From an uncultured Mesonia sp. (GTDB lineage Bacteria; Bacteroidota; Bacteroidia; Flavobacteriales; Flavobacteriaceae), in NCBI GenBank assembly GCA_947494545.1, contig CANLVH010000004.1, positions 181,281 to 245,280 of the forward strand: 64,000 nt of DNA. Reading direction: 5' to 3'. This document shows, piece by piece, positions 2 through 55,226 of this stretch (positions are counted from its first letter, which is position 1; each line of letters opens with the position of its first letter). A model generated the notes under the pieces. The model was not told where the DNA came from. It saw only the letters and a list, made by a program, of their open reading frames with translations, and did no database searches. A program made the translations under genes and the position numbers.

Positions 2-238
2 TCTCCAGCATTAAATTATGGGGAAGCTAGAAGTGTAGAATCTTCTCGAGACTTTTTACATAAAATGAAAATTTGTTTAAAAGAATTGAGAGAATCTTAC
101 GTGAATTTAAAAATTCAAAAAGGAGCTGGGCTAACTTTAAATTCAGAACTTTTAGAAGAATTATTAAAAGAGAATAACGAACTTATTTCAATTTTTGTGA
201 GGAGTGTAAAGACGGCTTCTTTTAAATTAAAATCTTAA
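2..238 (+). CDS. Four-helix-bundle protein (23S rRNA IVS-like family), 3' part; truncated by window start
   Basis: Manual translation SPALNYGEARSVESSRDFLHKMKICLKELRESYVNL...ELISIFVRSVKTASFKLKS*; the NYGEA..S..DF.HK..I.LKE.RE pattern is typical of the family. Confidence 0.85.
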   Translation, partial: SPALNYGEARSVESSRDFLHKMKICLKELRESYVNLKIQKGAGLTLNSELLEELLKENNELISIFVRSVKTASFKLKS

Positions 239-251
239 AATATTACGTTGT

Positions 252-1463
252 ATGACAAATCAACAATCAACAATCAACAATCAACAATCTTCAATTATTA
301 TTGCAATTATAGGAGCAGGAACAATGGGTAGCGGTATTGCGCAAGTTGCGGCAACCGCCGGATGCCAAGTTATGCTCTACGATACCAAACAAGAAGCATT
401 AGACAAAAGCAAAACCAAGCTGGAAAAAATCTTGTTTCGATTAATCGAAAAAGGAAGAATTGATGAAACAGAAAAAAATCGGATAGAAGGAAATATTTCG
501 TATGTAAACGCTTTAAAAGATTTGGCCAAAGCAGATTTAACCATCGAAGCAATTGTAGAAAACCTCGATATTAAGCGTAAAGTTTTTCAAGAATTGGAAA
601 GTTACCAATCTAGAGATGCTATCATAGCTTCTAATACGTCTTCGCTTTCTATAGCTAGCATTGCTGCTTCTTTAGAAAATCCGGAACGTGTTATCGGGAT
701 TCATTTTTTCAATCCCGCACCTTTAATGCCGTTGGTAGAAATTATTCCGGCCGTTCAAACTTCCGAAAAGGTAAAAGATAAAGTAGTACAAATTATAAGC
801 GACTGGGAAAAAGTTGGTGTACTTGCCAAAGACACGCCAGGCTTTATTGTAAACCGCGTGGCGCGACCATTTTACGGAGAAGCTTTACGGATTTACGAAG
901 AAGGAAAAGCCAGTTTTGCCGAAATTGATCAAGCTATGAAAGACTTAGGTGGTTTTAGAATGGGGCCATTTGAGTTGATGGATTTTATTGGAAACGACGT
1001 TAATTACACCGTTACCGAAACCGTTTTTGCAGCCTTTTATTACGATCCGCGTTACAAACCTTCCTTCACGCAAAAACGCCTATCAGAAGCTGGGTATCTC
1101 GGGCGAAAAACCGGGAAGGGTTACTACACTTATAAAGACGGCAAGCCTGTCATCCCGAGCGAAGTCGAGAAATCTCTCAACCAAGAAAAAGCAAATGAAA
1201 TCTTAGATCGCATTTTGGTAATGCTCATCAATGAAGCTGCCGACGCACTTTTCTTAAATATCGCCACGGCAAAAGATATAGATTTGGCAATGACTAAAGG
1301 CGTAAACTATCCAAAAGGTTTACTCGCTTGGGCCAACGAAAAAGGCATTGACTGGTGCGTAGAAAAAATGGATGCTTTATACGAAGAATACCACGAAGAC
1401 CGCTATCGCTGTAGTCCGCTGTTACGGAAAATGGCGAAAGAGAATAACAACTTTAACTTTTAA
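252..1463 (+). CDS. paaH: 3-hydroxyacyl-CoA dehydrogenase (PaaH-like)
   Basis: GAGTMGSGIA Rossmann motif, SNTSSLSI, GIHFFNPAPLMPLVE, DTPGFIVNR; paa gene neighbourhood. Confidence 0.85.
   Translation: MTNQQSTINNQQSSIIIAIIGAGTMGSGIAQVAATAGCQVMLYDTKQEALDKSKTKLEKILFRLIEKGRIDETEKNRIEGNISYVNALKDLAKADLTIEAIVENLDIKRKVFQELESYQSRDAIIASNTSSLSIASIAASLENPERVIGIHFFNPAPLMPLVEIIPAVQTSEKVKDKVVQIISDWEKVGVLAKDTPGFIVNRVARPFYGEALRIYEEGKASFAEIDQAMKDLGGFRMGPFELMDFIGNDVNYTVTETVFAAFYYDPRYKPSFTQKRLSEAGYLGRKTGKGYYTYKDGKPVIPSEVEKSLNQEKANEILDRILVMLINEAADALFLNIATAKDIDLAMTKGVNYPKGLLAWANEKGIDWCVEKMDALYEEYHEDRYRCSPLLRKMAKENNNFNF
255..289 (+). repeat. Heptamer tandem repeat (CAACAAT)x4 plus a degenerate unit
   Basis: Exact copies at 261-267, 268-274, 275-281, 282-288; encodes NQQSTINNQQ at the PaaH N-terminus. 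Confidence 0.95.
1148..1176 (+). repeat. CGTC-type REP-like palindrome embedded in frame in paaH
   Basis: TGTCATCCCGAGCGAAGTCGAGAAATCTC, translated as VIPSEVEKS; related copy on the minus strand at 51477-51499. Confidence 0.65.
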
Positions 1464-1474
1464 ATAAGTAGAAA

Positions 1475-1888
1475 ATGAAAAATGGCATTGTACGAAACAT
1501 TTTAGCAGTTATTTTAGGAGCTGTCTTGGGCGGTTTTATCAATATGGGAATAATAATGATAAGCGGCTATATAATTCCGCCACCTGCGGGAGCAGATTTA
1601 ACTACTCCAGAAGGATTGGAAGCGGCAAAAGATTTGTTAGAGCCCAAACATTTTATTTTTCCGTTTTTGGCACACGCTATAGGAACTTTGATAGGAGCTT
1701 TCATAACCGTAATTGTGGCCAAAAACCGTCATCTTATTTTGGCAATGCTAATTGGTTTTTTCTTTTTAATTGGGGGAATTGCAGCGGCCTTTATGATTCC
1801 ATCACCCACCTGGTTTGTGGTGTTAGATTTGGTCTTGGCTTATATTCCATTTGCTTGGTTAGCGTATAAAATTAGAAAAAAAATCTAA
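1475..1888 (+). CDS. Hypothetical membrane protein (about 4 TM segments)
   Basis: 137-aa ORF with several hydrophobic segments, co-oriented within the operon. Confidence 0.8.
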   Translation: MKNGIVRNILAVILGAVLGGFINMGIIMISGYIIPPPAGADLTTPEGLEAAKDLLEPKHFIFPFLAHAIGTLIGAFITVIVAKNRHLILAMLIGFFFLIGGIAAAFMIPSPTWFVVLDLVLAYIPFAWLAYKIRKKI

Positions 1889-1917
1889 TAGAAAGCATTA
1901 TTAAAATTAAAGTTTCG

Positions 1918-2349
1918 ATGAAAAATAAAGAAAATAAAAACAGTCTATCACCATTAAAAATTCCGCAGCATATGTTAGAAAATGATGCTTTCAGCCAATG
2001 GTTGGGGATTGAGATAGTAGAAGTGCAAGAAGGTTATTGTAAAGTGCAAATGCAAATCCGTAAAGAAATGCTTAACAGTATGAAAAAAGCCCACGGTGGC
2101 ATTACGTATTCTTTGGCAGATACCGCTTTTGGCTTTGCCTGCAACACTTACGGCAAAAAGGCAGTTTCTATAGAAACATCCATAAATCACATAGAAGCTT
2201 TAGAAGAAGGCGATATTATAACCGCAGAATCAGATGTAAAAAGCCAGAAAAACAAACTTGGTTTTTATATAGTAGAAGTAAAAAAACAAGAACAAATGGT
2301 TGCACTTTTTAAAGGCGTTACCTATCGCACGAGTGTAAACTGGGAGTAA
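1918..2349 (+). CDS. paaI: PaaI family hotdog-fold thioesterase
   Basis: DAFSQWLGIE...HGGITYSLADTAFGFA motif; paa context. Confidence 0.88.
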   Translation: MKNKENKNSLSPLKIPQHMLENDAFSQWLGIEIVEVQEGYCKVQMQIRKEMLNSMKKAHGGITYSLADTAFGFACNTYGKKAVSIETSINHIEALEEGDIITAESDVKSQKNKLGFYIVEVKKQEQMVALFKGVTYRTSVNWE

Positions 2350-2359
2350 AATAATCATT

Positions 2360-2451
2360 GGGGCGCAACCCTATCGGGTCGGGCTTTCGCGAGTCGCTTC
2401 CCGATTGCTTTCGCATCGGGAGAGCTTCAACAAACGCTCAATCCCTTGCAC
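2360..2451 (-). ncRNA. Flavo-1-like structured repeat, copy A
   Basis: Minus strand reads AGGGATTGAGCG...GCGAAAGCCCGACCC-hairpin-GGGTTGCGCCC; same architecture at 20771 and 52209. Family name assigned from recalled consensus, not from a covariance-model search. Confidence 0.55.
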
Positions 2452-2568
2452 AAAATAACAGACCATAAAATTTAAAAAATAAAATGTAAAAGTGAAAAGT
2501 TAGAGGGTTCGTATTAAAAACTTTATCTTTTGCATTCAAAATTTATAACTCAAAATTTAAAATTAGAA

Positions 2569-3774
2569 ATGAACGCATATATAATAGACGGAATAAGAAC
2601 GCCAATAGGAAATTATAAAGGAACATTGTCTCCAGTAAGAACAGACGATTTGGGAGCACTTGTCATTAAAGAAATTGTAAAAAGAAATCCGAATATTCCT
2701 AAAGATGCTTACGCCGATGTGATTATGGGCTGCGCCAACCAAGCCGGCGAAGATAATAGAAATGTTGCCAGAATGTGTTCGCTTTTGGCGGGTTTACCAT
2801 ACTCCGTTCCGGGCGAAACCGTAAATAGACTTTGCAGTAGCGGACTTTCGGCTATTATTCACGCCAATCGGGCAATAAAAACCGGAGACGGAGATTTGTT
2901 TATTTCCGGTGGTGTAGAACATATGACGCGCGGACCTTATGCTATTGCCAAACCTTCTTCCGCTTATGGAAATGATGCCAAAATGTACGATACCAGTTTT
3001 GGGTGGCGCTTTGTCAATCCAAAAATGCACGAGATGTATGGCACCGATGGCATGGGAGTAACGGCAGAAAATTTAGTAGATAAATACGTTATTTCTCGCG
3101 AAGACCAAGATGCTTTTGCATATTGGAGCCAAATGAAAGCCACCAAAGCCCAAGAAAATGGTCGTCTGGCAAAAGAAATTGTGCCTGTAGAAATTCCGCA
3201 AAGAAAAAAAGACCCTATTCACTTTAATCAAGATGAGTTTATAAAACCAAAAACCTCCAAAGAAATCTTAGCGAAGTTACGCCCGGTTTTCCGTAAAGAA
3301 GGTGGTAGTGTAACCGCAGGGAATGCTTCCGGACTTAACGATGGTGCTGCGGCAACTATTATAGCGTCAGAAGATGCTGTGAAAAAATACGATTTAAAAC
3401 CAATGGCAAAAATCTTGAGTTCTGCGGTAGTGGGGGTAGAACCAAGAATTATGGGAATAGGTCCCGTAGAAGCTTCTAATAAAGCTTTAGAAAAAGCAGG
3501 ATTAACCCTGAAAGATATGGATGTCATCGAGTTGAACGAAGCTTTTGCCGCACAAAGTTTGGCTTGTACCAGAGCTTGGGGATTAGAAGATAACGATTCC
3601 CGTCTAAACCCAAATGGAGGCGCTATTGCAATTGGTCATCCACTCGGCGTTACCGGAGCAAGACTAGCTTATACCGCAGCCTTAGAATTGCAACTTACCG
3701 GTAAAAAATATGCTCTAGTAACAATGTGCGTTGGAGTAGGACAAGGTTATGCTGCTGTAATAGAACGAGCCTAA
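2569..3774 (+). CDS. paaJ: 3-oxoadipyl-CoA/acetyl-CoA thiolase (PaaJ/PcaF)
   Basis: NRLCSSGL catalytic Cys, NEAFAAQ, GHPLGVTG, CVGVGQG; ATG at 2569 preferred to the TTG at 2530. Confidence 0.92.
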   Translation: MNAYIIDGIRTPIGNYKGTLSPVRTDDLGALVIKEIVKRNPNIPKDAYADVIMGCANQAGEDNRNVARMCSLLAGLPYSVPGETVNRLCSSGLSAIIHANRAIKTGDGDLFISGGVEHMTRGPYAIAKPSSAYGNDAKMYDTSFGWRFVNPKMHEMYGTDGMGVTAENLVDKYVISREDQDAFAYWSQMKATKAQENGRLAKEIVPVEIPQRKKDPIHFNQDEFIKPKTSKEILAKLRPVFRKEGGSVTAGNASGLNDGAAATIIASEDAVKKYDLKPMAKILSSAVVGVEPRIMGIGPVEASNKALEKAGLTLKDMDVIELNEAFAAQSLACTRAWGLEDNDSRLNPNGGAIAIGHPLGVTGARLAYTAALELQLTGKKYALVTMCVGVGQGYAAVIERA

Positions 3775-3905
3775 TTCCTGCGAAAGCAGGAATCTCAGGA
3801 GCAAGAGTAAAAGAGTTTTAGTCTGTGGGATATCTATGATAAGATATTAAGATTCCCACTTTCGTGAGAATACTGCGAAAGCAGGAATCTCAGGAGTAAG
3901 AGTAA
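3774..3905. repeat. REP-like doublet: ATTCCTGCGAAAGCAGGAATCT (3774-3795), degenerate inverted copy (3850-3871) and a second direct copy (3873-3905)
   Basis: 33-nt direct repeat 3778-3810 vs 3873-3905 with 1 mismatch; palindromic core with a GAAA loop; related copy at 15894-15921. Confidence 0.85.
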
Positions 3906-3988
3906 GAAGTTTGTGTTCTATAATTAATTGATAATGCGATTATTGTATTAAATATTTATTGATTATATTTACAAAAAATAAATATAAA

Positions 3989-4234
3989 ATGGCAACATTC
4001 ACATCTTCACTTCCCGATCATTTGCTAAAAGAACTGGCAGAAAAAGCTAAGGCATTAAAAATGCCTAAAAATAAGCTTATTGAAAAAGCGCTTGAAATTT
4101 ACTTAGAACAATTAGATCGTGCTGCGTATAAAAAATCCTACCAAAGAATGGCAAAAGACGAAGACATGTTAGCCATGGCTGAAGAAGGAATGGCAGATTA
4201 TTTTAAACAGCTTCAAGAGTTAGATAAAGAATGA
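3989..4234 (+). CDS. CopG/ribbon-helix-helix antitoxin
   Basis: MATFTSSLPDHLLKELAEKAK...KNKLIEKALEIYL RHH-like pattern; 4-nt ATGA overlap with the toxin gene. Confidence 0.8.
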   Translation: MATFTSSLPDHLLKELAEKAKALKMPKNKLIEKALEIYLEQLDRAAYKKSYQRMAKDEDMLAMAEEGMADYFKQLQELDKE

Positions 4235-4563
4235 AGCAAGGAGAAATTTGGGAAGTTTATTTTGATCCTGTAAAAGAAAGCGAGCAGGGAGGAAGACGTC
4301 CAGCAGTCATAATTTCTGGTAATTTGGTAAATGCAAATTTAAAGACAGTAATTGTATGTCCATTAACTAGCAAATTAAAAAATTATCACGGTAATTTAAT
4401 TGTGGAACCTTCCCAAAAAAACAGATTGAAAGCAAAATCAGAAGTGATGGCAATTCACGTTTGTTCCATATCTAAAGAGTGCTTTAAAAACAAATTAGGA
4501 GTTTTTAATAAAAAAGAAATGGCCGTAATTATTGAAGGCTTGAGTAAAATAATAAAGTATTAA
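4231..4563 (+). CDS. PemK/MazF family type II toxin (endoribonuclease)
   Basis: QGEIWEVYFDP..SEQGGRRPAVIIS...VIVCPLTS signature. Confidence 0.9.
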   Translation: MKQGEIWEVYFDPVKESEQGGRRPAVIISGNLVNANLKTVIVCPLTSKLKNYHGNLIVEPSQKNRLKAKSEVMAIHVCSISKECFKNKLGVFNKKEMAVIIEGLSKIIKY

Positions 4564-4607
4564 AGTAAAAATAGAAACGTTTTTTTACTGATTCTAAAAA
4601 TTAAAAA

Positions 4608-7145: not shown

Positions 7146-7166
7146 AAATTGGAAAAACAATAATAG

Positions 7167-7203
7167 AAAAAGCCGTCTAAAATTTGAAATTTAGACGGCT
7201 TTC
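7167..7203. terminator. Bidirectional intrinsic terminator
   Basis: AAAAAGCCGTCTAAA...TTTAGACGGCTTT hairpin between convergent genes. Confidence 0.85.
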
Positions 7204-7230
7204 TTATTTTAGTAAACTAAGTTTGCTGGT

Positions 7231-9372: not shown

Positions 9373-9414
9373 GGAATTATGTATTGATTATAAAATGATT
9401 TTAATTTCGTATCG

Positions 9415-10350: not shown

Positions 10351-10358
10351 TAGAGGTA

Positions 10359-10382
10359 AGTGGGTAGTTTTTAGAGGGTAGT
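10359..10382. repeat. Left arm of the inverted repeat around the four-helix-bundle gene
   Basis: AGTGGGTAGTTTTTAGAGGGTAGT matches the reverse complement of 10761-10791 at 23/24 positions plus one 7-nt bulge. Confidence 0.85.
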
Positions 10383-10386
10383 GAAT

Positions 10387-10757
10387 ATGAAAAGTAATTA
10401 TCATTTTAAATTTGAAGAATTAAAAGTATATCAAAAAGCCATTGAATATGGTGAATTGGTTCATTTTCAGATATCCACTTTTCCAAAAATTGAAGATTAT
10501 CGATTGTCGGCACAATTTGGAAGAGCTGCGGATTCGATAGCATTTAACATTGCTGAAGGTTCTGGAAGTTCGGATGCAAGTTTCTTAAATTATTTGAGAA
10601 TTGCGGAGATAGTTCACGTGAATGTGTTGCTTCAACAACCAAAGCTTTATTAAGAAATTATATAACTTTTGAAGAAAGTGAAAAAAATCGAGGCTTATTG
10701 GTTGAAATCAATAAAATGCTCGCAGCCTTAATGAAACATCTAAAAAATAAAAAATAG
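10387..10757 (+). pseudogene. Four-helix-bundle protein gene with a 1-nt deletion frameshift
   Basis: FKFEELKVYQKA...QFGRAADSIAFNIAEGS family start; after ATT GCG GA the second frame continues DSSRECVASTTKALLRNYI...LMKHLKNKK* (shift near 10606). Confidence 0.85.
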
Positions 10758-10760: not shown

Positions 10761-10791
10761 ACTACCCTCTACTCACTAAAAACTACCAACT
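10761..10791. repeat. Right arm of the inverted repeat (7-nt periodic)
   Basis: ACTACCCTCTACTCACTAAAAACTACCAACT; ends 3 nt before the paaY ATG. Confidence 0.85.
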
Positions 10792-16427: not shown

Positions 16428-17759
16428 ATGAGTGAAGATAAGAGATTCCCACGTTCGTGGGAATTTAAACTTCCCAAAATGGGAGAAAGTATTTCTGAAG
16501 GAACCATTATTAACTGGCTGGTAAACGAAGGAGATACCATAGAAAAAGACCAAATTATTGTAGAAGTTGCTACAGACAAAGTAGACTCTGAAGTGCCCGC
16601 CCCGGCAAATGGGAAAATCACGAAAATCTTTGCACAAGCAGATGAAGTAGTGCAAGTAGGGCAGGTAATTGCAAATATCGAAGCTTCCAGTGATCAATCG
16701 GTTAAAACAGATCACGCTTCCGCGGAAGCGAAAAAAGCAACACCTAAACCTTCTAAACCTAAAACACCAAAGAAGAAACCAGTCTCAACTTCGAACTCAC
16801 CTTCAACTTCAAAAACTTATACGCTTAATAAAAATCAGAACACTTACATTTCGCCACTTATTCAGAATATTGCGATAGATTATCACATTAGTTATGAAGA
16901 GTTGGCGCGCATTCCGGCAACGGGACACGACGGGCGTTTGCGCAAAAGCGATGTTTTTAAGTATATTGAAGAAGGCAGACCGGCGCAATTTGCACAACCC
17001 GCACCGGAAGCATCTGGTTTTCAAGTTCCCGATTTAAAATTGGACAAAGGAAAAGGCGAAATCATAGAAATGGACCGTATGCGGCAGATGATTGCCGATC
17101 ATATGGTTTATTCCAAACACACCTCGCCACACGTAACCGCGTATGTAGAAGCAGATTTAACCGAGATGGTAAATTGGCGAAATGCCAATAAAAAAGCTTT
17201 TCAAGATAAATATGGCGAAAAACTTACTTTTACGCCGCTTTTTGTAGAGGCAGTAGCCAAAGCGGTAAAAGATTTTCCCATGATTAATGTAAGCGTTGAC
17301 GGCAAAAATATCATTAAGAAAGAACATATAAATATCGGGATGGCCACGGCATTACCAAGCGGGAATTTAATTGTGCCCGTAGTAAAAAACGCTGACAAAA
17401 AAGATTTAAAAAGCATTGCTGCAGAGGTAAATGTCTTGGCGGAAAAAGCCAGAAATAACAAATTAAAACACGAAGAAACCAGCGGAAGCACGTTTACGAT
17501 TTCTAACGTAGGAACTTTTGGTAGCTTGATGGGAACCCCAATTATCAATCAGCCGGAAGTGGCGATATTAGCAACCGGAATCATCAAAAAACGCGCTGAA
17601 GTGATGGAATATGAAGATGGCGATAAAATTGAAATTAGAAGCATGATGTATCTCTCACTTTCCTTTGATCATCGCGTGGTAGATGGTTTTCTTGGCGGAA
17701 GTTTTTTAAGAAGAGTAGCAGATTATTTTGAAGATTTTAATCAAGAACGGGCTATTTGA
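16428..17759 (+). CDS. 2-oxoacid dehydrogenase E2 (dihydrolipoamide acyltransferase, branched-chain type)
   Basis: Lipoyl motif EVATDKVDSEVP, E3-binding domain, catalytic FDHRVVDG. Confidence 0.92.
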   Translation: MSEDKRFPRSWEFKLPKMGESISEGTIINWLVNEGDTIEKDQIIVEVATDKVDSEVPAPANGKITKIFAQADEVVQVGQVIANIEASSDQSVKTDHASAEAKKATPKPSKPKTPKKKPVSTSNSPSTSKTYTLNKNQNTYISPLIQNIAIDYHISYEELARIPATGHDGRLRKSDVFKYIEEGRPAQFAQPAPEASGFQVPDLKLDKGKGEIIEMDRMRQMIADHMVYSKHTSPHVTAYVEADLTEMVNWRNANKKAFQDKYGEKLTFTPLFVEAVAKAVKDFPMINVSVDGKNIIKKEHINIGMATALPSGNLIVPVVKNADKKDLKSIAAEVNVLAEKARNNKLKHEETSGSTFTISNVGTFGSLMGTPIINQPEVAILATGIIKKRAEVMEYEDGDKIEIRSMMYLSLSFDHRVVDGFLGGSFLRRVADYFEDFNQERAI

Positions 17760-17844
17760 GAAAAGACTTTTTGAAATATGACGATTTGAGACAGGACGAT
17801 TTGAATCAGGAGGTTTTGATACAAGACTTTTGGAGACAGGATTA
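17755..17844 (+). repeat. Six degenerate 15-nt tandem repeats (TTTGAGACAGGACGA-like)
   Basis: Units start at 17755, 17770, 17785, 17800, 17815, 17830; five begin TTTGA and one TTGGA. Confidence 0.9.
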
Positions 17845-17856: not shown

Positions 17857-18222
17857 ATGAGACGACATAATTTTAAAAAACTACAAATTTGGAAAGAAGC
17901 GATGGATTTGATAGATGAAAATTATCTTTTCACTTCTACATTACCAGATTATGAAAGATATGGACTGAGAACTCAAATGAATCGTTGTTCTGTATCTATT
18001 GCTTCTAATATCTCGGAAGGTTCCAGTAAACGAACTGATAAACATTTTGTAAAATATTTAGAAGATAGCTTAGGTTCTGCCTATGAATGGGAAACGCAAT
18101 TAGTAGTTTGTTTCCGTCAAGATTTTCTTTCCGAAGATGTTTATTTAAGTTTAGAAAGTAAAGTGCAAAAAGTACAAAGTAAAATCTCGAATTTTATCGA
18201 CAGACTTGATTCCAATAACTAA
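17857..18222 (+). CDS. Four-helix-bundle protein (23S rRNA IVS-like family)
   Basis: HNFKKLQIWKEAMDL...ERYGLRTQMNRCSVSIASNISEGS.....F...L..SLGSAYE.ETQL. Confidence 0.92.
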   Translation: MRRHNFKKLQIWKEAMDLIDENYLFTSTLPDYERYGLRTQMNRCSVSIASNISEGSSKRTDKHFVKYLEDSLGSAYEWETQLVVCFRQDFLSEDVYLSLESKVQKVQSKISNFIDRLDSNN

Positions 18223-18224
18223 AT

Positions 18225-18258
18225 AGTCGTGGTTCAAAACGTCCTGATTCTTGATTCT
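18225..18258. repeat. Right arm of the inverted repeat, plus TTGATTC heptamer
   Basis: 18225-18250 is the reverse complement of 17803-17828 at 22/26 positions. Confidence 0.85.
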
Positions 18259-18271: not shown

Positions 18272-20383
18272 ATGAGTAATAAAATAAAAAAAGATATACT
18301 AAAAAAAGCCTTCTCTAACCTGTGTACCGCGAAAGCCTTAACAGAGTTATACGAAGAGAATTTTAAAACCGTATCTAAATATGTGCACGCCACTTCCCGT
18401 GGACATGAAGTGATTCAAATGGCTGTGGGAATGCAGCTTTTGCCGCAAGATTATGTTTTTCCGTATTATCGGGACGATTCGATTTTGCTTTCTATCGGGA
18501 TGCAACCAAAAGATTTGATGTTGCAAGTGCTGGCAAAAAAAGACGATCCGTTTTCTGGCGGGCGCACCTATTATTCGCATCCCAGTCTAAAAGATGCCGA
18601 TAAACCTAAGATTCCGCACCAGAGTTCTGCTACGGGAATGCAAGCCATTCCGGCTACAGGCGTTGCTTTAGGGTTTCATTACCGTGAAGGAGGCGATTTA
18701 TTTACGGAAGATGAAAAATACGCGTTTTATAAAGAAATGGGGCAAGAAGAAGCTTTGGTGAATGGCGAGAAACCAGTTGTGGTTTGTTCGTTAGGAGACG
18801 CCAGTGTTACCGAAGGGGAAATAGCAGAAGCTTTTCAAATGGCTGCGCTTAAAAAATTACCTATTTTATATGTGGTGCAAGATAACGGCTGGGATATTTC
18901 TGCTAACGAAGCCGAAACTCGTGCTCAAAATGCCGCAGAATATGCACAAGGTTTTAAAGGTCTAGAAGCCGTTTCTATAGACGGAACCAATTTTGAAGAA
19001 AGTTATACCACGGTTCAAAATGCGTTAAAAACCATCCGTAAAGAAAGAAAACCAATGTTGATTCACGCTAAAGTTCCGTTGTTGAATCACCATACTTCTG
19101 GCGTGCGAATGGAATTTTATCGTGATGATTTAGAGGAAGCAAAAACCCACGATCCGTATCCGAAAATGAAAGACTATTTGTCTAAAAATAACTTTACGGA
19201 AGACGAAATAGAAGCTATTGAAGTTTTAGCAAAAGCCAAAGTAAAAGAACACTACCAAGAAGCCTTAACTGCCGAAGACCCCAAACCGGAAGATTTATTT
19301 ACCCACGATTTCGCGCCAACATCAATTACCGAAGAAAAAGGAGAACGCTCTCCAGAAGGTGCCGAAAAAGTGGTCATGGTAGATTGCGCTTTGTTTGCTA
19401 TCGAAGAATTGATGAAAAAACACAAAGAATGCCTGTTGTACGGTCAAGATGTTGGCGGTAGATTGGGTGGAGTTTTTAGAGAAGCGGCAACTTTAGCTCA
19501 AAAATTTGGCGACAACCGCGTGTTTAATACGCCTATTCAAGAAGCTTTTATTATTGGTTCTACCGTTGGGATGTCTGCGGTTGGTCTAAAACCCATCGTA
19601 GAAGTGCAATTTGCAGATTATATCTGGCCTGGACTTAACCAGTTGTTTACGGAAGTGAGCCGAAGTTGTTATTTGTCTAACGGCAAATGGCCGGTTTCTA
19701 TGGTATTGCGCGTTCCTATTGGCGCTTACGGTAGCGGCGGACCTTACCATTCTTCTTCGGTAGAAAGTGTGGTAACCAATATTCGCGGACTTAAAATTGC
19801 GTACCCGAGCAACGGAGCCGATTTAAAAGGTTTGATGAAAGCCGCTTATTACGACCCGAATCCGGTGGTGATTTTTGAACATAAAGGTTTATATTGGAGC
19901 AAAGTGCCCGGGACAAAAGGCGCAACTTCGGTAGAACCGAGTGAAGATTATGTGTTGCCGTTTGGAAAAGCTTGGGTTTTGCAAGAAATCTGGAAGCAAG
20001 AAGATAAAGAGACCTTGAGTATTGTTACTTACGGAATGGGCGTACATTGGGCGATGAACGCTTCTGCGGAATTAGGTCTGCAAGATCAAATAGAAGTAGT
20101 AGATTTACGAACTTTACATCCACTTGATGAGGAGACCATAATGAAATCTGTAAAGAAATGCGGCAAATGTTTGGTAGTAACCGAAGAACCATCAGATAAT
20201 ACCTTTGCAAGAGCTTTGTCGGGTAAAATTCAAGAAGAATGTTTTAAAACTTTAGACGCTCCGGTCATGACAATTGGTTCAGAAAATATGCCGGCCATTC
20301 CGTTAAATTCAACCTTAGAAGAAACGATGATTCCTTCTACGGAAAAAGTAAAAGCGAAGATTGAGGAGTTGTTGAGGTATTAG
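18272..20383 (+). CDS. 2-oxoisovalerate dehydrogenase E1, fused alpha+beta subunits
   Basis: TPP-binding GDASVTEG...DNGW in the alpha part; GQDVGG..GGVFR, FNTPIQE, EVQFADY in the beta part. Confidence 0.92.
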   Translation: MSNKIKKDILKKAFSNLCTAKALTELYEENFKTVSKYVHATSRGHEVIQMAVGMQLLPQDYVFPYYRDDSILLSIGMQPKDLMLQVLAKKDDPFSGGRTYYSHPSLKDADKPKIPHQSSATGMQAIPATGVALGFHYREGGDLFTEDEKYAFYKEMGQEEALVNGEKPVVVCSLGDASVTEGEIAEAFQMAALKKLPILYVVQDNGWDISANEAETRAQNAAEYAQGFKGLEAVSIDGTNFEESYTTVQNALKTIRKERKPMLIHAKVPLLNHHTSGVRMEFYRDDLEEAKTHDPYPKMKDYLSKNNFTEDEIEAIEVLAKAKVKEHYQEALTAEDPKPEDLFTHDFAPTSITEEKGERSPEGAEKVVMVDCALFAIEELMKKHKECLLYGQDVGGRLGGVFREAATLAQKFGDNRVFNTPIQEAFIIGSTVGMSAVGLKPIVEVQFADYIWPGLNQLFTEVSRSCYLSNGKWPVSMVLRVPIGAYGSGGPYHSSSVESVVTNIRGLKIAYPSNGADLKGLMKAAYYDPNPVVIFEHKGLYWSKVPGTKGATSVEPSEDYVLPFGKAWVLQEIWKQEDKETLSIVTYGMGVHWAMNASAELGLQDQIEVVDLRTLHPLDEETIMKSVKKCGKCLVVTEEPSDNTFARALSGKIQEECFKTLDAPVMTIGSENMPAIPLNSTLEETMIPSTEKVKAKIEELLRY

Positions 20384-35013: not shown

Positions 35014-35091
35014 TACTACTACTTACTACCCACTGCTAACTGTTAACTGCTAACCGTCAAGTGCTACCTAAAACCCAACACCTAAAACCTA
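35014..35091. repeat. Degenerate heptamer tract (AACTGCT-type then ACCTAAA-type units)
   Basis: cactgct aactgtt aactgct aaccgtc aagtgct acctaaa acccaac acctaaa accta from 35031. Confidence 0.8.
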
Positions 35092-35247
35092 ATCCTTATT
35101 TCTATCAAAACCATACGGGCAATGTCTACAACCACTTTTACAGCAATAGCCGCGTTTTAGATGGTATTGTTCCGTAAAGCATCTGTAACCTTGCGGAGTT
35201 AAGTAATAATCGCCTTCTTCTAGCGGAATACGTTTCTTTAAATTCAT
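35089..35247 (-). CDS. Small Cys-rich protein (DUF5522-like), 52 aa, missing from the ORF track
   Basis: Manual translation MNLKKRIPLEEGDYYLTPQGYRCFTEQYHLKRGYCCKSGCRHCPYGFDRNKD*. Confidence 0.85.
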   Translation of the reverse strand: MNLKKRIPLEEGDYYLTPQGYRCFTEQYHLKRGYCCKSGCRHCPYGFDRNKD

Positions 35248-44630: not shown

Positions 44631-44645
44631 AGAGCAAGTAGATTT

Positions 44646-45822: not shown

Positions 45823-45927
45823 GCGCCGGGTGTTTTACTGTGACCTTTTCTTATTAAATTCTTAGGCAAGAGGTCTTTTTTTAAAAATGCCTAGATTTTT
45901 GCAATTTAGTATTTTATGAACGGCAAA

Positions 45928-48597: not shown

Positions 48598-48843
48598 AAT
48601 TTATCTATCTACAATTCTATATTATCTTAATTTCGTTTTTTAATCTATGTTGTTTGCTTAACCTTTTTTAGGGAAAATCGATTTCTGTTGAAGCAACTTA
48701 AAATTTAATAAATTTTATAGACCGTAATTTTTTTGTTGTTGCCCAATATCGTTTTTTTGCATAGCCAAAGGCAAATTTAAGTCTCTAAATTTTCCTTTAG
48801 CTTAATTTGCTGTGAAATTGTTAATACCAGACTGTTAAAATTT

Positions 48844-49965
48844 TTGAAAAGCCCTACTATTACATACATTGCTCTGGGAAGCAATCAAGGAGATAAATTG
48901 GATAATTTGCAACTTGCCACCGCTTATATATACAAGAAAATTGGCGATGTAACCGCGGTTTCCAAAATTTATACCGGTCCGGCAATTGGTTTTAACGGCG
49001 ATGCTTTTTATAATGCTTGCATAGAAGTTTCTACGCGTTTTTCTGCTAAGAAAGTCCTTAACCAACTTTTAGAAATAGAACAATTAATGGGACGCCGGCG
49101 TAAAATTACTACCGAATATGAAAACCGGATAATAGATTTAGATTTGCTGTTTTATCAAGAAGAGGTTATCCAAACCAAACGCATTACTTTACCACACCCG
49201 CATTTGCATAAGCGCAATTTTGTTTTGCAGCCTTTGGCAGATATTGCCGGCTCGGTTTTGCATCCGGTATTGCAAAAAACGGTTAGCGAATTCTTAGAAA
49301 GCCTTCCCCATCAAGAAAAATTGACTGCTATTTCAGCAAATTTACAACCGCAAAACAGTCAATTAAAAGCTTTTAATTATTTGGCTATTGAAGGAAATAT
49401 TGGCGCGGGAAAAACAAGTTTGGCCAGTATGATAGCGCAAGATTTTAAGGCAAAACTTATTACGGAACGTTTTAAAGACAATCCGTTTTTACCAAAGTTT
49501 TACAAAGACCAAAGTAGGTATGCTTTTCCGTTAGAAATGTCTTTTTTGGCAGATCGTTACCAGCAATTATTAGACGATATTTCGCAATACGATTTGTTTA
49601 ACGATTTTATGGTAGCCGATTATGACGTGTATAAATCGCTTATTTTTGCTAAAGTTACCTTGCAGGAAGAAGAATATGCTTTGTATAAAAAGCTTTTTCA
49701 GATAATGTATAAAGATTTGGCAAAGCCCGATTTGTATGTTTATTTGTATCAAAACACAGAGCGCTTGCTAGAAAATATTCAAAAACGCGGCAGAAAATAC
49801 GAACAAGATATTCCTGCAGATTATCTAGAAAACATTAACAGAGGATATTTAGAATTCATAAAACAGCAACACCACCTCAAAGTGAAAATTATAGATATTT
49901 CTGAATTGGACTTTGTAAACCAACGCGAAGATTATTTAGAAGTGCTGGAGCAGATTTCTGGTTAG
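48844..49965 (+). CDS. folK: FolK (HPPK) fused to deoxynucleoside kinase
   Basis: YIALGSNQGD, RIIDLDLLFY, LPHP.LH.R.FVL.PL; then IEGNIGAGKTS and DRYQQ. Confidence 0.92.
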   Translation: MKSPTITYIALGSNQGDKLDNLQLATAYIYKKIGDVTAVSKIYTGPAIGFNGDAFYNACIEVSTRFSAKKVLNQLLEIEQLMGRRRKITTEYENRIIDLDLLFYQEEVIQTKRITLPHPHLHKRNFVLQPLADIAGSVLHPVLQKTVSEFLESLPHQEKLTAISANLQPQNSQLKAFNYLAIEGNIGAGKTSLASMIAQDFKAKLITERFKDNPFLPKFYKDQSRYAFPLEMSFLADRYQQLLDDISQYDLFNDFMVADYDVYKSLIFAKVTLQEEEYALYKKLFQIMYKDLAKPDLYVYLYQNTERLLENIQKRGRKYEQDIPADYLENINRGYLEFIKQQHHLKVKIIDISELDFVNQREDYLEVLEQISG

Positions 49966-50070
49966 GGATTAGGTGGTAGATTAGTAGATAGTGGGGACTA
50001 GGTTGTAGGTCTTAGGTTTTAGAAAAAATAATAGACTAGTAAACTAGTGAACCAGTCAATTAGTTAACCA
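49963..50070. repeat. Degenerate heptamer (TAGGTTT-type) tract followed by an octamer (AAACTAGT-type) tract
   Basis: TAG recurring at about 7-nt spacing over 49963-50022; agactagt aaactagt gaaccagt caattagt at 50033-50064. Confidence 0.75.
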
Positions 50071-50115
50071 AATCATTTTCCAACCAAAGCAGAAAGTTTA
50101 CGGCTAAAACAATTC

Positions 50116-51336
50116 TTATTCTACCTCGAGCTCAAATTGCAGAGATTTATTTAATTTATTGCTAACTACAAGAGTATATTTCCCGGGTTTTAGTGCCATA
50201 TAACCAGGTGTTTGCGGGTTTGGAATCTCAATAATATCTGTAGGAATAGCATTTTGAATATTTTCGTTTTTTACGTAAGCCAAAACCATTACCGGAAAAG
50301 CAATTTTTGCATCTTGTAAAGCAATTTTAACCGCTTTGTTTTCTTTACTGAATAACCAGTTTGGTCGGTTGTTGGCATATTTGGTTACAGGATGCAAAAC
50401 AGCAATATCTGTATAACTTTGGTTTCTTTTATACCCTAAAATCTCTCCATTTTTTTGAAGTAAAACCGAACTTTTTTCTAAATCTAAAGCTTTCAAAAGT
50501 TTATTGTTTAGGGCTTTATTACTGCGCTCACTGTATTTTGTCTGATTAATAGTCAGCGGATCCATGCCGGTATATTCAGAAAGTTTTGCGGCCATAGCTT
50601 TTCCCCATTTTTTATGCTTGCCTTCTAAAACATGGTCATAGCCGCAGTGAATAATATATTTGCCGTTTGGATTTTTATCCATAAAACCCTGAATGTTTTT
50701 AGCTTGTGCAATTTCCCTTTTTTTTCCATTAAAGTTGGAAGTTTGTTCATACGAGAACACGGTAAACCCTATTTCTAAAGCAGTCCGTACCAAATTTCCA
50801 AATTGCGGTTCTTTTATATAATAACCGTTTTTTTGAACGGGATAACCTCTTTCATTTAGAAGCGAATCTTTGTTTTTCCCGTTGGTCAAAGCTTCTAACC
50901 CCAAATTTTTATAACCGTTTTCGTATAATTTCTGCAATAAGCTTTTGGTGAAATTTCTGTGGGAAGGATTGTGATGCGCTTCGTTTATAATAAGTAAATC
51001 TGTAGCTTTTGCCTGCTCAACAATATAACCTGCGGCCGGTATAATTTCATATTTATTTTGAATAGAATCAATTTGCTTTTTTGAAAAAGTTGTAACCCTT
51101 CCGGGGAAAGCGATATCCCATTGCTCTAAAGCGTTTTTAAAATCTCCTTTTTTAGCATATTCTGCCGCCGAAATCTGGTTTTTCCAAGCAGTTGTGTCTT
51201 TGGCGAGTTTTTCTTGAATAGCAGCATCAAATTTATAAGGATTCTTATATTCAATTTCTTGATAGTCGTGCGTGCTTTTACAGTTTACAAAAAGAAGAAA
51301 AATAGACAACACATAAATAACCGGAAGAAAGCGCAT
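50116..51336 (-). CDS. Hypothetical exported protein/lipoprotein
   Basis: 406-aa ORF; FVNC lipobox-like motif; IINEAHH and LGLEAL motifs. Confidence 0.75.
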   Translation of the reverse strand: MRFLPVIYVLSIFLLFVNCKSTHDYQEIEYKNPYKFDAAIQEKLAKDTTAWKNQISAAEYAKKGDFKNALEQWDIAFPGRVTTFSKKQIDSIQNKYEIIPAAGYIVEQAKATDLLIINEAHHNPSHRNFTKSLLQKLYENGYKNLGLEALTNGKNKDSLLNERGYPVQKNGYYIKEPQFGNLVRTALEIGFTVFSYEQTSNFNGKKREIAQAKNIQGFMDKNPNGKYIIHCGYDHVLEGKHKKWGKAMAAKLSEYTGMDPLTINQTKYSERSNKALNNKLLKALDLEKSSVLLQKNGEILGYKRNQSYTDIAVLHPVTKYANNRPNWLFSKENKAVKIALQDAKIAFPVMVLAYVKNENIQNAIPTDIIEIPNPQTPGYMALKPGKYTLVVSNKLNKSLQFELEVE

Positions 51337-51476
51337 AGGAAAACTTTAGTTTAAACTGCAAGTATAACTAAATTTCTAGTTTTAAATAGGTTTTTTGTAA
51401 TAAAATAGAGTTGAGAGAAAATTTTTCTTTTAAAAACTTAACTTGTTTCTTGTTTAAAAACTGTGGTTAAAAAGCG

Positions 51477-51499
51477 CCTCGACTCCGCTCTCCGTGACA
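51477..51499 (-). repeat. Solo REP-like palindrome
   Basis: Reverse complement TGTCACGGAGAGCGGAGTCGAGG, related to 1148-1170. Confidence 0.5.
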
Positions 51500-51584
51500 T
51501 TTAGCTTGAAAAAGAAACATGCTCGTTCTAGCTAGCAAAACCTTTTTCTTCTTTAGCTTTTTCGCTGTTTTACTTTTGATTTAA

Positions 51585-52127
51585 TCAACTAATCTTCCCC
51601 ATTTTCGCAAACAAATCCCAAATAACAACGCCGGCACTTACCGAAATATTAAGCGAGTGTTTACTGCCGTATTGCGGAATTTCGATTACGGTGTTGGCTT
51701 TAGAAACTACCTCTTGACTTACACCTTTTACTTCGTTACCAAAAACCACTGCGTAAGTTTGGTCTCCCTTCGGAGTGAAATTATTAAGCATTATCGCGTT
51801 TTCGGCTTGTTCTATGGCTAAAACCTGTACGCCATCTGCTTGTAATTGTTCTATTAATTCTGTTGTGTTTTCTACGTGTTCCCAAGTCACGGTTTCGGTG
51901 GCGCCAAGAGCGGTTTTTCTAATATCTTTATGCGGCGGAGTTGCGGTGATGCCACAGAGATATATTTTCTCGATTAAAAAAGCATCGGCGGTCCTAAAAA
52001 CCGAACCTATATTATTTAAACTTCTGATGTTATCCAACACTAAAATCAATGGCGTTTTAGATGCGTGTTTAAATTCGGTTATGCTTTTTCTGCTTAACTC
52101 GCTGTTTTTTAGCTTTCGGTTTTTCAT
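51585..52127 (-). CDS. SpoU/TrmH family RNA 2'-O-methyltransferase
   Basis: LDNIRSLNNIGSVFRTADA, VFGNEVKGVS, EIPQYGSKHSLNISV. Confidence 0.92.
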   Translation of the reverse strand: MKNRKLKNSELSRKSITEFKHASKTPLILVLDNIRSLNNIGSVFRTADAFLIEKIYLCGITATPPHKDIRKTALGATETVTWEHVENTTELIEQLQADGVQVLAIEQAENAIMLNNFTPKGDQTYAVVFGNEVKGVSQEVVSKANTVIEIPQYGSKHSLNISVSAGVVIWDLFAKMGKIS

Positions 52128-52208
52128 AACTGCAAAAGTCTGTTAATTTGACTAATTTTTAAAATGAATTTATAAAAAACTGCTTTACGTGATTGCTTAA
52201 CGGTTTTT

Positions 52209-52379
52209 GCGTGAGGGATAGTAGCGGTAGCCCGTAAAAGCTTTCTTTGTTAAAAATACCGGGAGCCTGGGCGACCGGCAGGAAGCCCAAGAAACCGTAT
52301 ATTTTTTTAAAGAAAGCTTGCGGACTATAAGCGGATAGCCCGGCCCCTCTCCAATTAAAATTGGGGAGGGGTCACGCCC
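52209..52379 (+). ncRNA. Flavo-1-like structured repeat, copy C (extended central stem)
   Basis: GTGAGGGATAGTAGCGG...AAGCTTTCTTT/AAAGAAAGCTT stem...AGCGGATAGCCCGGCCCCTCTCCAATT-AA-AATTGGGGAGGGGTCACGCCC. Confidence 0.55.
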
Positions 52380-52470
52380 AAAATAGTTTTGTTTATATTC
52401 TTACAACCGAATTTATTAGTAAAAACTATTGGAATGCCTATTTTTACCAAAATTTAAAAAATCACTCATT

Positions 52471-55086
52471 TTGTCTGCAAAGAAACCTAAAAAAGTAACG
52501 CCGCTAATGAAGCAATATTATGCTATAAAGCATAAATATCCGGATGCGATGTTGCTATTTCGGGTAGGCGATTTTTATGAAACTTTTGGCGAAGATGCCG
52601 TAAAAGCTGCGCGAATTTTAAACATTGTTTTAACCAACCGAAACAACGGCAGCGAGCGGACAGAGTTGGCCGGTTTTCCGCATCATAGCTTAAATACATA
52701 CTTACCAAAGTTGGTAAAAGCCGGCGAGCGCGTGGCCATTTGCGACCAGTTAGAAGACCCAAAACAGACCAAAAAAATTGTAAAACGCGGGGTTACAGAA
52801 TTGGTAACGCCGGGTGTGGCGCTAAACGATGAGGTGTTGCAGAGCAAAACCAATAACTTTTTGTGTGCCGTGCATTTTGGTAAGAAAAAATGCGGAATTG
52901 CCTTTGTAGATGTTTCTACCGGTGAGTTTTTAACAGCAGAAGGCGATGTGGAGTATTTAGATAAATTGTTGCAGAATTTTAGTCCGAGTGAGGTGTTGGT
53001 TTCTAAAAATTGTAAAAACAATTTTACTGCTCATTTTGGGAGCGGCTACCATACTTTTTTTCTGGAAAATTGGATTTTTAAGTTGGATTATGCCACGGAA
53101 ACTCTAAACGAGCATTTTAAAACAAAATCGCTTAAAGGCTTTGGTATAGAAAATTTGGTAGACGGCGTAATTGCTTCGGGTGCTATTTTGTATTATTTAA
53201 GCGAAACGCAACACCATAAATTAGAGCATTTGGCTTCTATATCGCGCATTGCGCAAGATGAGTACGTTTGGATGGACCGGTTTACTATTCGTAATTTGGA
53301 GCTGTACCAATCTACGGCAAACCAAGCGGTTACTTTGCTAGATGTTATAGACAAAACTATCTCGCCAATGGGCGGCAGGCTCCTAAAACGTTGGTTGGCT
53401 TTACCGTTAAAGAGTTTAGAGAAAATTACACGGCGTTATGAAGTGGTTGGTTTTTTCTTAAAAAACACGGCTTTAAAAGAAAAACTGCAGGCTCAAATAA
53501 AAAATATGGGCGATTTGGAGCGTTTGATTTCCAAGGTTGCCACGCAAAAAATTAGTCCGCGGGAGGTGCTTCAACTCAAAACCTCTTTAGATGCCGTGGT
53601 TCCTATAAAAGAAGCTACAAAAAACACAGCTTGCGAACCTTTAAATAGTATTTCAGAAAATTTACATGCTTGTGATTTATTGCGTTCTAAAATTAAAAAT
53701 GCTTTAAAAGAAGATGCGCCGGTAAATGTATCTAAAGGAAATGTTATTGCAGATGGCTTTTCGGAAGAATTAGACGAGTTGCGTAAAATTGCCTTTTCAG
53801 GGAAAGATTATCTGGATAAAATGATAGCGCGGGAAGTAAAAACTACCGGCATTAGTAGCCTGAAAATTGGCAGCAATAATGTGTACGGATTTTATATAGA
53901 AGTACGCAATACGCACAAAGATAAAGTGCCCGAAACTTGGGTGCGTAAACAAACTTTGGTAAATGCAGAGCGTTATATTACCGAAGAACTAAAAGAATAC
54001 GAAACCAAAATTTTAGGTGCCGAAGAGAAAATACATTCCTTAGAACAAGAAATTTTCACCAAATTGGTAATTTGGCTTAACGATTACATAGCTTCGGTAC
54101 AACAAAACGCTTTGCTTATTGCCAGATTAGACTGTTTGTGCAGCTTTGCGCAATTGGCTCTAGAAGAAAATTATTGCAAACCGCAATTGCATAACGAGCA
54201 CGATTTAAAAATAGAGCAGGGCAGACATCCGGTTATAGAAAAGCAACTGCCGCCGGGCGAACCTTATATTGCCAACGATTTGTTTCTAGATAGAGAAACG
54301 CAACAAATTGTAATGATTACCGGACCAAATATGAGTGGTAAGTCGGCTATTTTACGCCAAACCGCTTTAATTGTATTGTTGGCGCAAATGGGAAGTTTTG
54401 TCCCGGCAAAAGCCGCCGAAATTGGTTTGGTAGATAAAATTTTTACTAGAGTAGGAGCCAGCGATAATATAAGTATGGGCGAATCTACTTTTATGGTAGA
54501 AATGAACGAAACTGCCAATATCTTAAACAACATTTCTGAACGTAGTTTGGTTTTGTTAGATGAGATTGGTCGTGGTACCAGTACTTACGATGGTATTTCT
54601 ATTGCTTGGGCAATTAGCGAATATTTGCATGAACATCCTGCCAAAGCAAAAACTTTATTTGCCACGCATTACCACGAGTTGAATGAAATGACCCAGCGTT
54701 TTGATCGGATCAAAAACTATAATGTTTCGGTAAAAGAATTAAAAAATAAGGTATTGTTTTTACGGAAATTGGTACCCGGCGGCAGCGAACATAGTTTTGG
54801 AATTCACGTAGCAAAAATGGCCGGAATGCCACAGCAGGTAGTGTTACGAGCTTCTAAGATATTAAAGAAGTTAGAAAAATCGCACGCAGGAGAAGAGCTT
54901 AGTTCTAACTTAAAAAGTGCAACCGAGCAGGAGCCGCAATTGAGCTTTTTTCAGTTAGACGATCCGTTGTTGGAAGAAATAAAAGAAGAGATTTTAGATC
55001 TGGATATCGATACGCTTACACCCGTGGAAGCTTTAATGAAACTAAACGAAATAAAACGATTGCTGGCGCCAAAAAAGCAGGGATGA
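52471..55086 (+). CDS. mutS: DNA mismatch repair protein MutS
   Basis: [46 protein letters not shown]; start uncertain (TTG 52471 or ATG 52507). Confidence 0.97.
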
Positions 55087-55105
55087 GTTTATACTAGATA
55101 ATACA

Positions 55106-55226
55106 GTAGAAAATAGAGAATAGAAAATAGAAGCTGTATGCTAAATTTTCTCCGTCAGAAGTGTCGAATCTTAGTATTTTTCCGAAAATCAAAAATCAGT
55201 AATCAAAAATCAGCGATCTACAATCT
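55106..55226. repeat. Two orphan heptamer tracts (ATAGAAA-type 55106-55133; AAAATCA-type 55185-55226)
   Basis: gtagaaa atagaga atagaaa atagaag; aaaatca aaaatca gtaatca aaaatca gcgatct acaatct. Confidence 0.8.

Follow-up and report, generated by a model that had tools for sequence, protein, structure and literature searches.

Four-helix-bundle genes between inverted heptamer arrays in operon spacers of Mesonia: a candidate mobile cassette akin to rRNA intervening sequences

INTRODUCTION

Why should small genes of a protein family first met inside 23S rRNA lie in the spacers of protein-coding operons, each framed by short tandem repeats that are reverse complements of one another? The question is raised by a stretch of 64,000 nucleotides from an uncultured Mesonia sp. 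(hereafter the window, G000:C4:181281-245280, from a draft genome of 3.28 Mb with 35% G+C), in which a first-pass annotation made from the letters alone had recognised three four-helix-bundle (4HB) genes at operon junctions beside repeats of 7 or 15 nt. That annotation had proposed that gene and repeats together might form mRNA-level intervening elements or a transposase-less mobile unit, each protein being paired with its own repeat, and that similar tracts devoid of a gene could be footprints of such units. To our knowledge, the function of the very large PF05635/TIGR02436 family is unknown, and its members have been met only in rRNA intervening sequences (IVSs) and as Avd, the accessory protein of diversity-generating retroelements (DGRs). 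The rRNA IVSs reside in a helix of 23S rRNA (helix 25 or 45, helix 45 in Coxiella) and occur as well in Leptospira, Xanthomonas and Brucella. In Coxiella burnetii the IVS is excised by RNase III and carries tandem GACAGAT heptamers, variable in number among strains, which precede the S23p open reading frame (ORF) inside inverted repeats (PMC4990558).

RESULTS

A common plan of inverted arrays around PF05635 genes

Profile searches matched all three window ORFs (Table 1) to PF05635 and short-period arrays were located beside each of them, so that the initial recognition of 4HB genes at repeat-bearing operon junctions was borne out. We refer to the gene together with its two arrays, or arms, as a cassette. 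Including the three window genes, the genome holds eight PF05635 loci, all eight placed between co-oriented protein-coding genes and all following the same order: the stop codon of the upstream gene, a short-period array rich in G, T and A, the ORF, a reverse-complementary array and the next start codon. The layout is constant while the repeat sequence is specific to the locus, as had been noted for the window. When relatives were included, 72 of 77 cassettes were flanked by co-oriented genes, the median gaps being 50 and 42 nt, and 17 of the 77 4HB genes (~22%) appeared pseudogene-like. Period 7 was the commonest among arms (39 arms), others being found at 14 to 16, and it was seen in only 5 of 600 control flanks. 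The arms also showed a marked polarity, since 79 of 124 cassettes had more G than C on the left together with more C than G on the right, the reverse occurring in 8.

Complementarity between the two arms had been reported for the two complete window genes, and both counts were reproduced. The arms of cassette 2 pair at 23 of 24 positions (GGTAGTTTTTAG, a 7-nt bulge TGAGTAG and AGGGTAGT), and those of cassette 3 pair as listed in Table 1. This complementarity exceeded both shuffles and controls. Duplex energies, which are noisy over the 100-nt windows used, fell below those of dinucleotide shuffles at 8/8 genomic loci (z from -1.2 to -4.6), and the flank alignment scores of 37 loci surpassed those of 300 control genes comparable in size (p=4e-12), the high-scoring controls being AT-rich chance matches. 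In the strictest control, left arms were paired with right arms of unrelated cassettes, thereby preserving composition and periodicity; 48 of the 77 cognate pairs ranked in the top 5%, and 30 of 77 scored above all 40 cross pairs. Whole-element RNA folds of cassettes 2 and 3 placed the arms as the terminal closing stem in both the minimum free energy and the centroid structures (z=-2.7 and -2.2).

Filled, empty and replaced junctions within the genus

Alleles of three junctions were compared across Mesonia with one genome per species, and at every one of them the filled and empty states foreseen by the first-pass annotation were found. The junction between the E2 and E1 genes of 2-oxoacid dehydrogenase, which harbours cassette 3 in the window, was examined in 16 genomes. 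An intact cassette of the window kind (type A) was present in 7 genomes. Across type-A alleles the left arm is built of 15-nt units that number between 2 and 7 (7 in G014), and such periodic arms allow several pairing registers. The junction was empty in one genome (G013; 51 nt, repeat-free) and contained only palindromes resembling repetitive extragenic palindromic (REP) elements in two (G005, G006). A type-A remnant that had lost most of the ORF and kept both arms was seen in G003, while in G014 the type-A ORF was disrupted by a GIY-YIG gene. Three genomes carried another TIGR02436 gene with other arms (AATTTTTA period), and in G008 a GxxExxY (TIGR04256) gene lay between CGCAAAG and CTTTGCG arrays. 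Hence, the arms at this junction differ when the cargo differs. The last 4-5 codons of E2 (window 17743-17759; ERAI*, EKTF*, RPNY* and KADRKI* at L031-L046) vary with the type of insert as well, and in type-A alleles these tail codons coincide with the first 15-nt repeat unit, including the stop codon.

The hydratase/paaY junction, occupied by cassette 2 in the window, contained a 4HB cassette in 5 genomes, with a frameshift in G000, an in-frame TAG in G009 and a 5' truncation in G005. The two host genes shared a TAATG stop-start overlap in G012, and short hairpins, a REP element or other non-cassette sequence filled the spacer in G001, G011, G010 and G007; a GIY-YIG cassette with REP-like inverted repeats was found in G003 and G008. 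The junction between the DUF5522 and urocanase genes was short and repeat-free in 6 genomes and bore an intact 4HB cassette in G008, with a left arm of nnnCAGT x4 and a right arm of (CACTGAA)x6, whereas only a right-arm remnant, (AACACTG)x3, persisted ahead of the start codon in G009. A conserved insert of ~130 nt (..AAATGAAACAYTTAGT..GTCGACATCG.GTYGACATTCGATA..) was observed at the same junction in G006, G004, G001 and G003 (L121, L126-L128). An exact-protein look-up for strain-level variants returned no match.

The lineages of two of the three window genes have been inactivated independently. Elsewhere, two unrelated 4HB clades (L070 in G009:C18 and L091 in G014:C11) showed GAA mutated to TAA at a conserved Glu that is the same in both (NK*Y and DK*Y), and three others carried stop codons in a conserved W-Q/K motif; these recurring positions could be either coincidence or repeated inactivation.

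Small GIY-YIG genes recur near cassettes, with at least 12 tblastn matches in the genome itself. One of them, outside the window (G000:C1:406845-407140), lies inside a 4HB ORF and is flanked by TGACCTGTGAAAT and ATTTCACAGGT; L032 (G014) corresponds to the gene within the type-A ORF, and L102 and L103 (G003, G008) to those that form REP-like inverted-repeat cassettes of their own at hydratase/paaY. In the window, a tandem duplication of 396 nt (55620-56466; 2.1 copies, 97% identical) is located downstream of a tRNA, and its units each include a GIY-YIG-like ORF (55708-56007 and 56050-56403). REP-like palindromes, e.g. GTCACCCTGAACTTGATTCAGGGT and CTCCCTTCCCTCGGGGAAGGG, were likewise observed at cassette junctions (L035 in G006, L043 in G005, L033 in G009 and L110 in G010).

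Arms travel with the gene and diverge

A scan of public genomes detected the clade of gene 3 at the E2/E1 junction in Psychroflexus, Aequorivita, Ulvibacter, Patiriisocius and Winogradskyella, and also at no fewer than five other types of junction (at least six in total), where the arms were made of CA[AG]GA-type heptamers. This motif was picked after inspection and is thus post hoc, unlike the k-mer, Mantel-like test that was applied to 124 cassettes using only pairs at different junctions. In that test, the 6-mer similarity of arms rose with the identity of the proteins, from 0.067 (<50%) through 0.103 (50-60%) and 0.145 (60-70%) to 0.172 (70-80%), the last value being about that of pairs at the same junction; a correlation as high as the observed one arose in 2 of 500 label permutations. 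With a first sample of 77 loci, protein identity and arm similarity had shown no association (rho 0.017), and the correlation became positive only once the range of 50-80% identity was sampled more broadly.

Since arm similarity increases with protein identity across different junctions, gene and arms move as one unit. The co-variation of protein clade and repeat sequence suspected at the outset was thus recovered, and the proposal of a transposase-less mobile unit gained support from an IVS-type element having filled and empty alleles and arms that follow the ORF to new junctions. The stricter idea that each protein is paired with its own repeat was borne out only as co-inheritance; below ~50% identity the similarity of arms is at background. 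After moving, arms diverge rapidly, being unrelated below ~50% identity yet complementary to their own partner, and therefore something must keep both arms matched. We had also considered that arms could be built from the local target sequence, given the resemblance of the E2 tail to the first unit of cassette 3; this origin was set aside because the same clade keeps CA[AG]GA-type units at other junctions. At three Aequorivita E2/E1 loci (L192, L194, L209) the order is left arm, ORF, a direct copy of the left-arm module and right arm, which looks as if an ORF-bearing unit stood beside a gene-less hairpin, or as if arrays had recombined.

The cassettes are present or absent at orthologous sites and the same unit occurs at non-orthologous sites, as is characteristic of mobile elements. 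As far as can be read from these alleles, the cassettes are shown to be insertable and decaying, with arms that are able to survive alone as footprints.

Orphan tracts and the heptamer landscape

The gene-less tracts that had been described around 35014, 49963 and 55106 are all present, and their interpretation as footprints was upheld for one of them. Orphan tract 1, between the DUF5522 and urocanase genes, contains TAGCAGT TAACAGT TAGCAGT, units of left-arm type that resemble the left arm of the G008 cassette at this very junction; folding revealed no stem in it. These units directly support its identification as a left-arm footprint, the corresponding cassette being intact in a sister species. 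The other two differ. Among the orphans, only tract 2 forms a hairpin on folding (-28.5 kcal/mol, z=-3.4), and its junction is almost spacer-free in 4 relatives and occupied by other arrays in 3. The tracts at 55095-55226 are unpaired arrays belonging to an insertion of ~200 nt that is absent from 12/12 congeners.

Throughout the genome, 66 tandem tracts of period 7 were counted, against 18, 8, 13, 0 and 0 for periods 5, 6, 8, 9 and 10, respectively. Merging yielded 53 period-7 tracts in 34 unit classes, 52 of which lie between genes. They are of two kinds: those immediately following a stop codon are rich in G and lack C, and those preceding a start codon are rich in C and lack G. At convergent junctions each gene is trailed by its own G-rich array. 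At least half of the 6-mers of 22 of 52 orphan tracts were shared with an arm of the eight resident cassettes, compared with 9.5±3.8 tracts for random sets of eight foreign cassettes, and none of 2000 resamples reached 22; the contrast between resident and foreign arms taken per cassette was marginal (p=0.058). Orphan tracts therefore match resident arms only modestly more than foreign ones. Very long heptamer arrays were also observed in spacers with no ORF between them, at G000:C8:133556-133845 and C14:82283-82384, where ~20 units of GGTGGTT/GGTAGTT are joined to (GTTTCGT)x8 and to further kinds of unit within one spacer.

Two other explanations of the heptads were rejected. They could not serve as stop codons in three frames, as units such as GGAGATT, GGTGGTT and GTTTCGT contain no stop and the TGAs of the 15-nt array fall in one frame, nor as G-quadruplex arrays, which would fit only GGG-containing units, e.g. 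(GGGTAGT)n, and not most arrays.

Features of the window

The coordinates of the cassettes and orphan tracts are compiled in Table 1.

Table 1. Cassette components and orphan repeat tracts of the window (positions within the 64,000-nt stretch)
Feature	Position	Strand	Description
Cassette 1, 4HB gene (3' part)	2..238	+	PF05635
Cassette 1, right arm	252..296	+	(CAACAAT)x4.6 at 258-289; complementary to left arm 32/39
Cassette 2, left arm	10351..10383	+	G-rich quasi-heptads TAGAGGT AAGTGGG TAGTTTT TAGAGGG TAGTG
Cassette 2, 4HB gene (pseudogene)	10387..10757	+	PF05635, 57 bits on N-terminal part
Cassette 2, right arm	10761..10790	+	ACTACCCTCTACTCACTAAAAACTACCAAC; ends 4 nt ahead of the ATG of the hexapeptide-transferase (paaY-like) gene
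Cassette 3, left arm	17754..17841	+	~6 units of 15 nt (ACAAGAC-type heptamer + TTTTGA-type octamer)
Cassette 3, 4HB gene	17857..18222	+	intact, 121 aa; PF05635 + TIGR02436
Cassette 3, right arm	18223..18257	+	ATAGTCGTGGTTCAAAACGTCCTGATTCTTGATTC; pairs with left arm 22/26
Orphan tract 1	35014..35092	-	G-rich heptad arrays between DUF5522 and urocanase genes (both minus strand)
Orphan tract 2	49963..50068		gene-less imperfect heptad hairpin, convergent junction after HPPK-dNK gene
Orphan tract 3a	55095..55132	+	(TAGAAAA)n immediately after mutS stop codon
Orphan tract 3b	55185..55226	+	(AAAATCA)n, G-poor; not complementary to tract 3a

The gene of cassette 1 is cut by the edge of the window. The whole ORF (120 aa) starts at G000:C4:181156, 124 nt before the window, so that only its 3' two-thirds are visible here, and its PF05635 score is 40.8 bits when taken whole against 19 bits for the fragment alone; the left arm (GATTGAA GATTAAC GATTGAT GATTGCA...) lies upstream of the edge. 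According to Pfam, the immediate downstream neighbour is a 3-hydroxyacyl-CoA dehydrogenase gene (3HCDH, window 252-1463); the upstream neighbour lies beyond the edge. The annotated start of this ORF falls inside the right arm, its codons 1-16 (252-299, MTNQQSTINNQQSSII) corresponding to the (CAACAAT) array and the Pfam domain beginning at residue 17; either the right arm is translated or the true start of the dehydrogenase is elsewhere.

Cassette 2 separates, by Pfam match, an enoyl-CoA hydratase gene (ECH) from a hexapeptide transferase gene, and its left arm begins 1 nt past the stop codon of the former. Its 4HB gene is a pseudogene, since 1 nt has been deleted near 10605, and the orthologue in G009 was inactivated separately by its in-frame TAG.

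Cassette 3 occupies the E2/E1 spacer (Pfam), where repeat detection gave a periodicity of 15/30 nt for the left arm. Unit 1 of this arm shares its sequence in part with the end of the E2 acyltransferase gene, namely the last codons and the TGA stop, and E1 starts at 18272, downstream of the cassette. Gene 3 scored 108 bits against PF05635 (cut-off 33.8) and 100.9 bits against TIGR02436, and matched Xanthomonas XCC0516 (PDB 2GSC, 5 chains) over residues 6-115 (E=3.3e-17), so that by sequence its product of ~120 aa is homologous to a solved four-helix-bundle pentamer. Its orthologues are 82-90% conserved within the genus.

DISCUSSION

We consider it somewhat probable (about 0.55) that the cassette is a promoterless, IVS-like unit, selfish or near-neutral, whose arms loop out the ORF in the transcript. 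The unit consists of a 4HB gene of ~120 aa (S23p/TIGR02436, Avd-like) within two inverted short-tandem-repeat arrays, the repeat units being mostly heptamers and, in cassette 3, 15-mers composed of 7+8 nt. Seated in the spacer of two co-oriented host genes, it would presumably be transcribed by read-through, and pairing of the arms in the transcript would loop out the ORF as in rRNA IVSs. Looping out might keep the insertion tolerable for the operon, with the stem as a likely substrate of RNase III, and the polarity of the arms, G-rich after the upstream stop and G-poor, C/A-rich before the downstream start, could reflect selection for an unstructured leader. The element would then be selfish or nearly neutral rather than a regulator of the host. 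RNase III is encoded in the genome, and mRNA-level excision of the cassettes is proposed purely by analogy with rRNA IVSs. Sequencing runs searched for the window locus and for a Flavobacterium relative comprised low-share metagenomes only. Taken together, the data support the mobile unit and its footprint, while excision from RNA and specificity between protein and repeat remain proposals.

Several results weigh against this reading. The complementarity of the arms is ~78% only, no clean boundary of insertion was seen, and the TAATG and 51-nt empty alleles gave no recognisable target-site duplication. Wobble pairs are normally enriched in a structural RNA that is selected for base pairing; the 228 mismatched positions in 27 well-paired stems showed no wobble bias, with 44 of G·U type versus 51 of A·C type and 133 transversions. 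Given this lack of wobble preference and the dominance of transversions, selection on an RNA stem at the level of base pairs is not detectable, and the mismatch pattern would be compatible with DNA-templated homogenisation of the arms. Of the 53 heptamer arrays, most lie at a distance from 4HB genes and many form no hairpin, and therefore the arrays are partly tied to cassettes and partly independent of them.

In a possible, if rather doubtful, alternative the arms act in DNA, in the manner of REP elements and their associated transposases (REP/RAYT) or of Ssn/NTS systems, as single-stranded hairpins recognised by a nuclease or recombinase that might be provided in trans. The role of the 4HB protein would then be that of an accessory that binds nucleic acid, with non-autonomous copies represented by the arrays and hairpins that lack a gene. 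Arm mismatches devoid of an RNA-wobble signature agree with it, as does complementarity kept despite drift, which would fit DNA-templated correction of quasi-palindromes; cassettes with nuclease folds (GIY-YIG and the PD-(D/E)XK-like GxxExxY) and inverted repeats occupy the same junctions, more orphan tracts share units with resident than with foreign arms, and Ssn GIY-YIG nucleases are reported to cleave their framing repeats (PMC11893778). However, no catalytic activity is known for the 4HB fold, the cassettes are nearly always co-oriented with the operon, and the polarity of the arrays follows transcription even at convergent gene pairs, which is unexpected for a symmetric DNA cruciform. 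A related view, which we entertain only tentatively, regards the 4HB proteins as sequence-reading partners of the heptamer arrays, arms and gene-less arrays forming an autonomous/non-autonomous system like that of RAYTs and REPINs. A putative pentameric protein may in that case bind, spread or maintain 7-nt-periodic arrays, rRNA IVSs being one landing site.

It seems unlikely that heptamer arrays are simply an independent intergenic feature on which 4HB genes land or persist, the stem being a by-product. The excess of period-7 tracts over those of periods 6 and 8 would suit this explanation, and so would their nearly exclusive intergenic location, mostly far from 4HB genes and in many unit classes, together with arrays that come and go at junctions lacking such a gene. 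Yet cognate arms are far more complementary than non-cognate pairs of G-rich and C-rich arrays, arms follow the protein clade to new junctions and switch with the cargo at a single junction, and empty alleles of the same junction have no arrays. Even less probable, in our judgement, is that the cassettes are domesticated regulators, each 4HB protein binding its own repeats as RNA or DNA and tuning the stability or translation of the neighbouring metabolic genes. The exact fit between stop and start codons, the right arm 4-15 nt from the downstream ATG, the conservation of gene 3 within the genus and its recurrence at the same E2/E1 junction in several genera could be read in favour of regulation; on the other side stand the fraction of broken 4HB genes, their patchy occurrence among sister species, the interchangeable cargo of the junctions and the separate inactivation, in their lineages, of two of the three window genes.

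If a hairpin-armed cassette in an operon spacer is the usual context of this family, the rRNA IVS would be one case of a widespread insertable module, and the arms, their polarity and the allelic series from empty through filled to footprint would offer an experimental handle. Through the cassettes, a gene family is connected with one class of heptamer microsatellites that had lacked an explanation; should the 4HB proteins indeed read these sequences, they would account for the heptamer microsatellites of Flavobacteriia and of cyanobacteria. Operon junctions emerge as hot spots at which small cassettes of unrelated kinds (4HB, GxxExxY, GIY-YIG, REP) take each other's place, and a practical consequence for annotation is that arm repeats are read as N- or C-terminal codons of host genes. 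In the full-text literature, subscription journals being outside the scope, neither PF05635 nor GxxExxY was described as forming repeat-armed cassettes between protein genes. To this the window adds three allelic series within a genus, the relocation of arms with the gene, a negative wobble test and a documented footprint.

Comparison with known systems

Heptanucleotide tandem repeats are familiar from cyanobacteria as short tandemly repeated repetitive (STRR) sequences. The arrays described here resemble them in being intergenic tandem heptamers of many unit types; they belong to another phylum, and a subset of the Mesonia arrays are arms or footprints of 4HB cassettes. STRR repeats have served as fingerprinting targets (PMC5088731). 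The DGR accessory protein Avd shares the homologous four-helix-bundle fold and family (PMC10053308), but the cassettes are not adjacent to a reverse transcriptase, template or variable repeats, and the only RVT_1 match of the genome (C9:23424-24026) is on a contig with no 4HB locus.

The REP/RAYT (REPIN) systems likewise combine a small gene in inverted repeats with many gene-less copies that partly share the repeat. In the cassettes, by contrast, the cargo is PF05635 only, a non-catalytic four-helix bundle instead of a Y1 (IS200/IS605-like) transposase, and the arms are tandem heptamer arrays that differ in sequence at nearly every locus rather than a single palindromic REP. The Ssn GIY-YIG nucleases with their NTS/SRM repeats also present a small gene framed by associated repeats (PMC11893778), and GIY-YIG cassettes are found in sister species at the same junctions and even inserted in 4HB cassettes. 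The 4HB cassettes differ in having no GIY-YIG domain or nuclease, and recognition of the repeats by the 4HB protein is only putative.

The ORF-bearing 23S rRNA IVS has in common with the cassettes a PF05635/TIGR02436 protein, an ORF inside inverted repeats that form a long stem, a sporadic distribution with decaying ORFs and, in Coxiella, tandem heptamers of variable copy number upstream of the ORF. The cassettes depart from it in their position, at 8/8 loci in operon spacers between protein genes instead of an rRNA helix, and they fall outside the IVSs as defined by location because they do not lie in rRNA. Their arms are whole repeat arrays in which the G-rich side consistently comes first, and footprints that lack a gene are dispersed over the genome. 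Excision by RNase III is proven for the rRNA IVS and would be no more than a proposal for the cassettes. Among the systems compared, the ORF-bearing 23S rRNA IVS is the closest known relative of the cassettes.

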